From assembly GCA_027492205.1 (NCBI GenBank), contig JAOZFN010000009.1, positions 64,001 through 128,000 on the forward strand: DNA of 64,000 bases, in the 5' to 3' direction. The letters are not shown here. The DNA is from Thermoproteota archaeon. GTDB lineage: Archaea > Korarchaeota > Korarchaeia > Korarchaeales > Korarchaeaceae. The text below continues a report on this DNA, generated by a model with database tools.

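Follow-up and report, generated by a model that had tools for sequence, protein, structure and literature searches.

The source genome carries a second module, paralogous to the one in the window that combines SsnA, a BMP-type ABC importer and a seven-gene operon. It lies outside the window on contig C5, and its genes run in the order aldolase-like, reductase paralog (38%), AOR, polyferredoxin, M20 hydrolase, TRZ/ATZ amidohydrolase, hydantoinase-like, AOR and ECF-type ATPase, the reductase being the DPD/UacX-like FMN reductase with two [4Fe-4S] clusters. The same contig holds an SsnA paralog and a RuBisCO large subunit gene. We counted 11 AOR-family genes in this genome of 1.94 Mb (four on C11, three on C5, two on C17 and one each on C9 and C4); the C9 copy, at the start of its contig, clusters with the AORs of the module.

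We also found two Xdh-type Mo hydroxylase gene sets on contig C4. They are separated by an aspartate-carbamoyltransferase-like ORF with an N-terminal extension of ~190 residues. Next to them lie a Liv/Urt-type ABC importer and an allantoinase-like gene, the latter scoring above its cut-off. Possibly this region is a purine or allantoin locus in its own right, confined to genus g1. On C11, two large ORFs directly upstream of the AOTC-like carbamoyltransferase gene weakly matched anti-phage-associated DUF1156 and DUF499 proteins, with scores of 87 and 156 bits that fall far under the cut-offs, and a further AOR and a polyferredoxin lie beyond the carbamoyltransferase region.

Positions of the features discussed (plain coordinates are those of the window)
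Feature	Location	Strand	Remark
PGM/PMM-family mutase	10338-11720	+	
KaiC-like ATPase	12734-13540	+	
Two Opp/Dpp-type peptide ABC systems	13839-28478		back-to-back pair with ATPases, permeases and SBP_bac_5 proteins (903 and 613 aa)
MDR Zn-alcohol dehydrogenase	41475-42407	-	
YgeY-like N-terminal stretch	43471-43611		out-of-frame ATG at 43476
Usp gene	44636-45082	-	
AT-rich elements in GC-rich intergenic DNA	56895-57060; 58594-58615		
Second module	C5:789-11314		locus L067
SsnA paralog	C5:20169-21464		
RuBisCO large subunit	C5:24531-25418		
Xdh-type sets (XdhA/B; XdhB/C/A-like)	C4:53789-63879		L007 7787-17883
AOR	C9:98-2011		
Two large ORFs	C11:147136-151369		L009 1136-5369
Further AOR	C11:155262-157016		
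Polyferredoxin	C11:160376-160876		
Two PAS-domain histidine kinases; M24 peptidase/creatinase-type and PfkB kinase genes	L038 2668-6513, 11106-13793		Thorarchaeota-labelled locus

Within the window, the two peptide import systems, together with genes for a 2-oxoacid:ferredoxin oxidoreductase and an ADP-forming acyl-CoA synthetase, give the left half a peptide-fermentation character. The mutase encoded there is of the family to which archaeal phosphopentomutases belong. The N-terminal 30-44 codons of the YgeY-like gene are conserved at the protein level between the source genome and the congeneric genome G001. This stretch contains no in-frame ATG, GTG or TTG in the source genome; in G001 it has a GTG in frame. 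This could reflect a non-standard start codon, recoding, or a protein shortened at its N-terminus. The MDR Zn-alcohol dehydrogenase and Usp genes are masked by longer-looking antisense ORFs on the + strand, and the 3' end of the former overlaps a convergent HIBADH ORF by 86 nt. Around the importer's BMP gene, AT-rich elements contrast with GC-rich intergenic DNA: a TTTATTT element precedes the first polyferredoxin gene of the operon, a palindrome with TTAAAATATT lies ~175 nt ahead of the BMP start, and downstream of the BMP stop there is an oligo-T run. They may serve as archaeal promoter and terminator signals.

The reductase also occurs outside this genome. In the Thorarchaeota-labelled locus, the histidine kinases are neighbours of the module, and the stretch between reductase and amidohydrolase contains a gene of the M24 peptidase/creatinase type and one for a PfkB kinase. 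Metagenome loci L103, L140, L146, L147 and their relatives, which represent a third architecture, combine the reductase with ADP-forming acyl-CoA synthetase subunits, a hydantoinase-like gene and an SsnA-like hydrolase, and also carry an XdhC-family gene (L103), or a second true SsnA and an Xdh-like gene within 10 kb. AOR-less metagenome loci (L085-L090, L086 included, and L094) hold two AOTC-like carbamoyltransferases, carbamate kinase, an SsnA-like hydrolase, the reductase and a fold-II PLP enzyme. This arrangement is a candidate for a compact archaeal purine pathway, which would yield two carbamoyl phosphates per purine.
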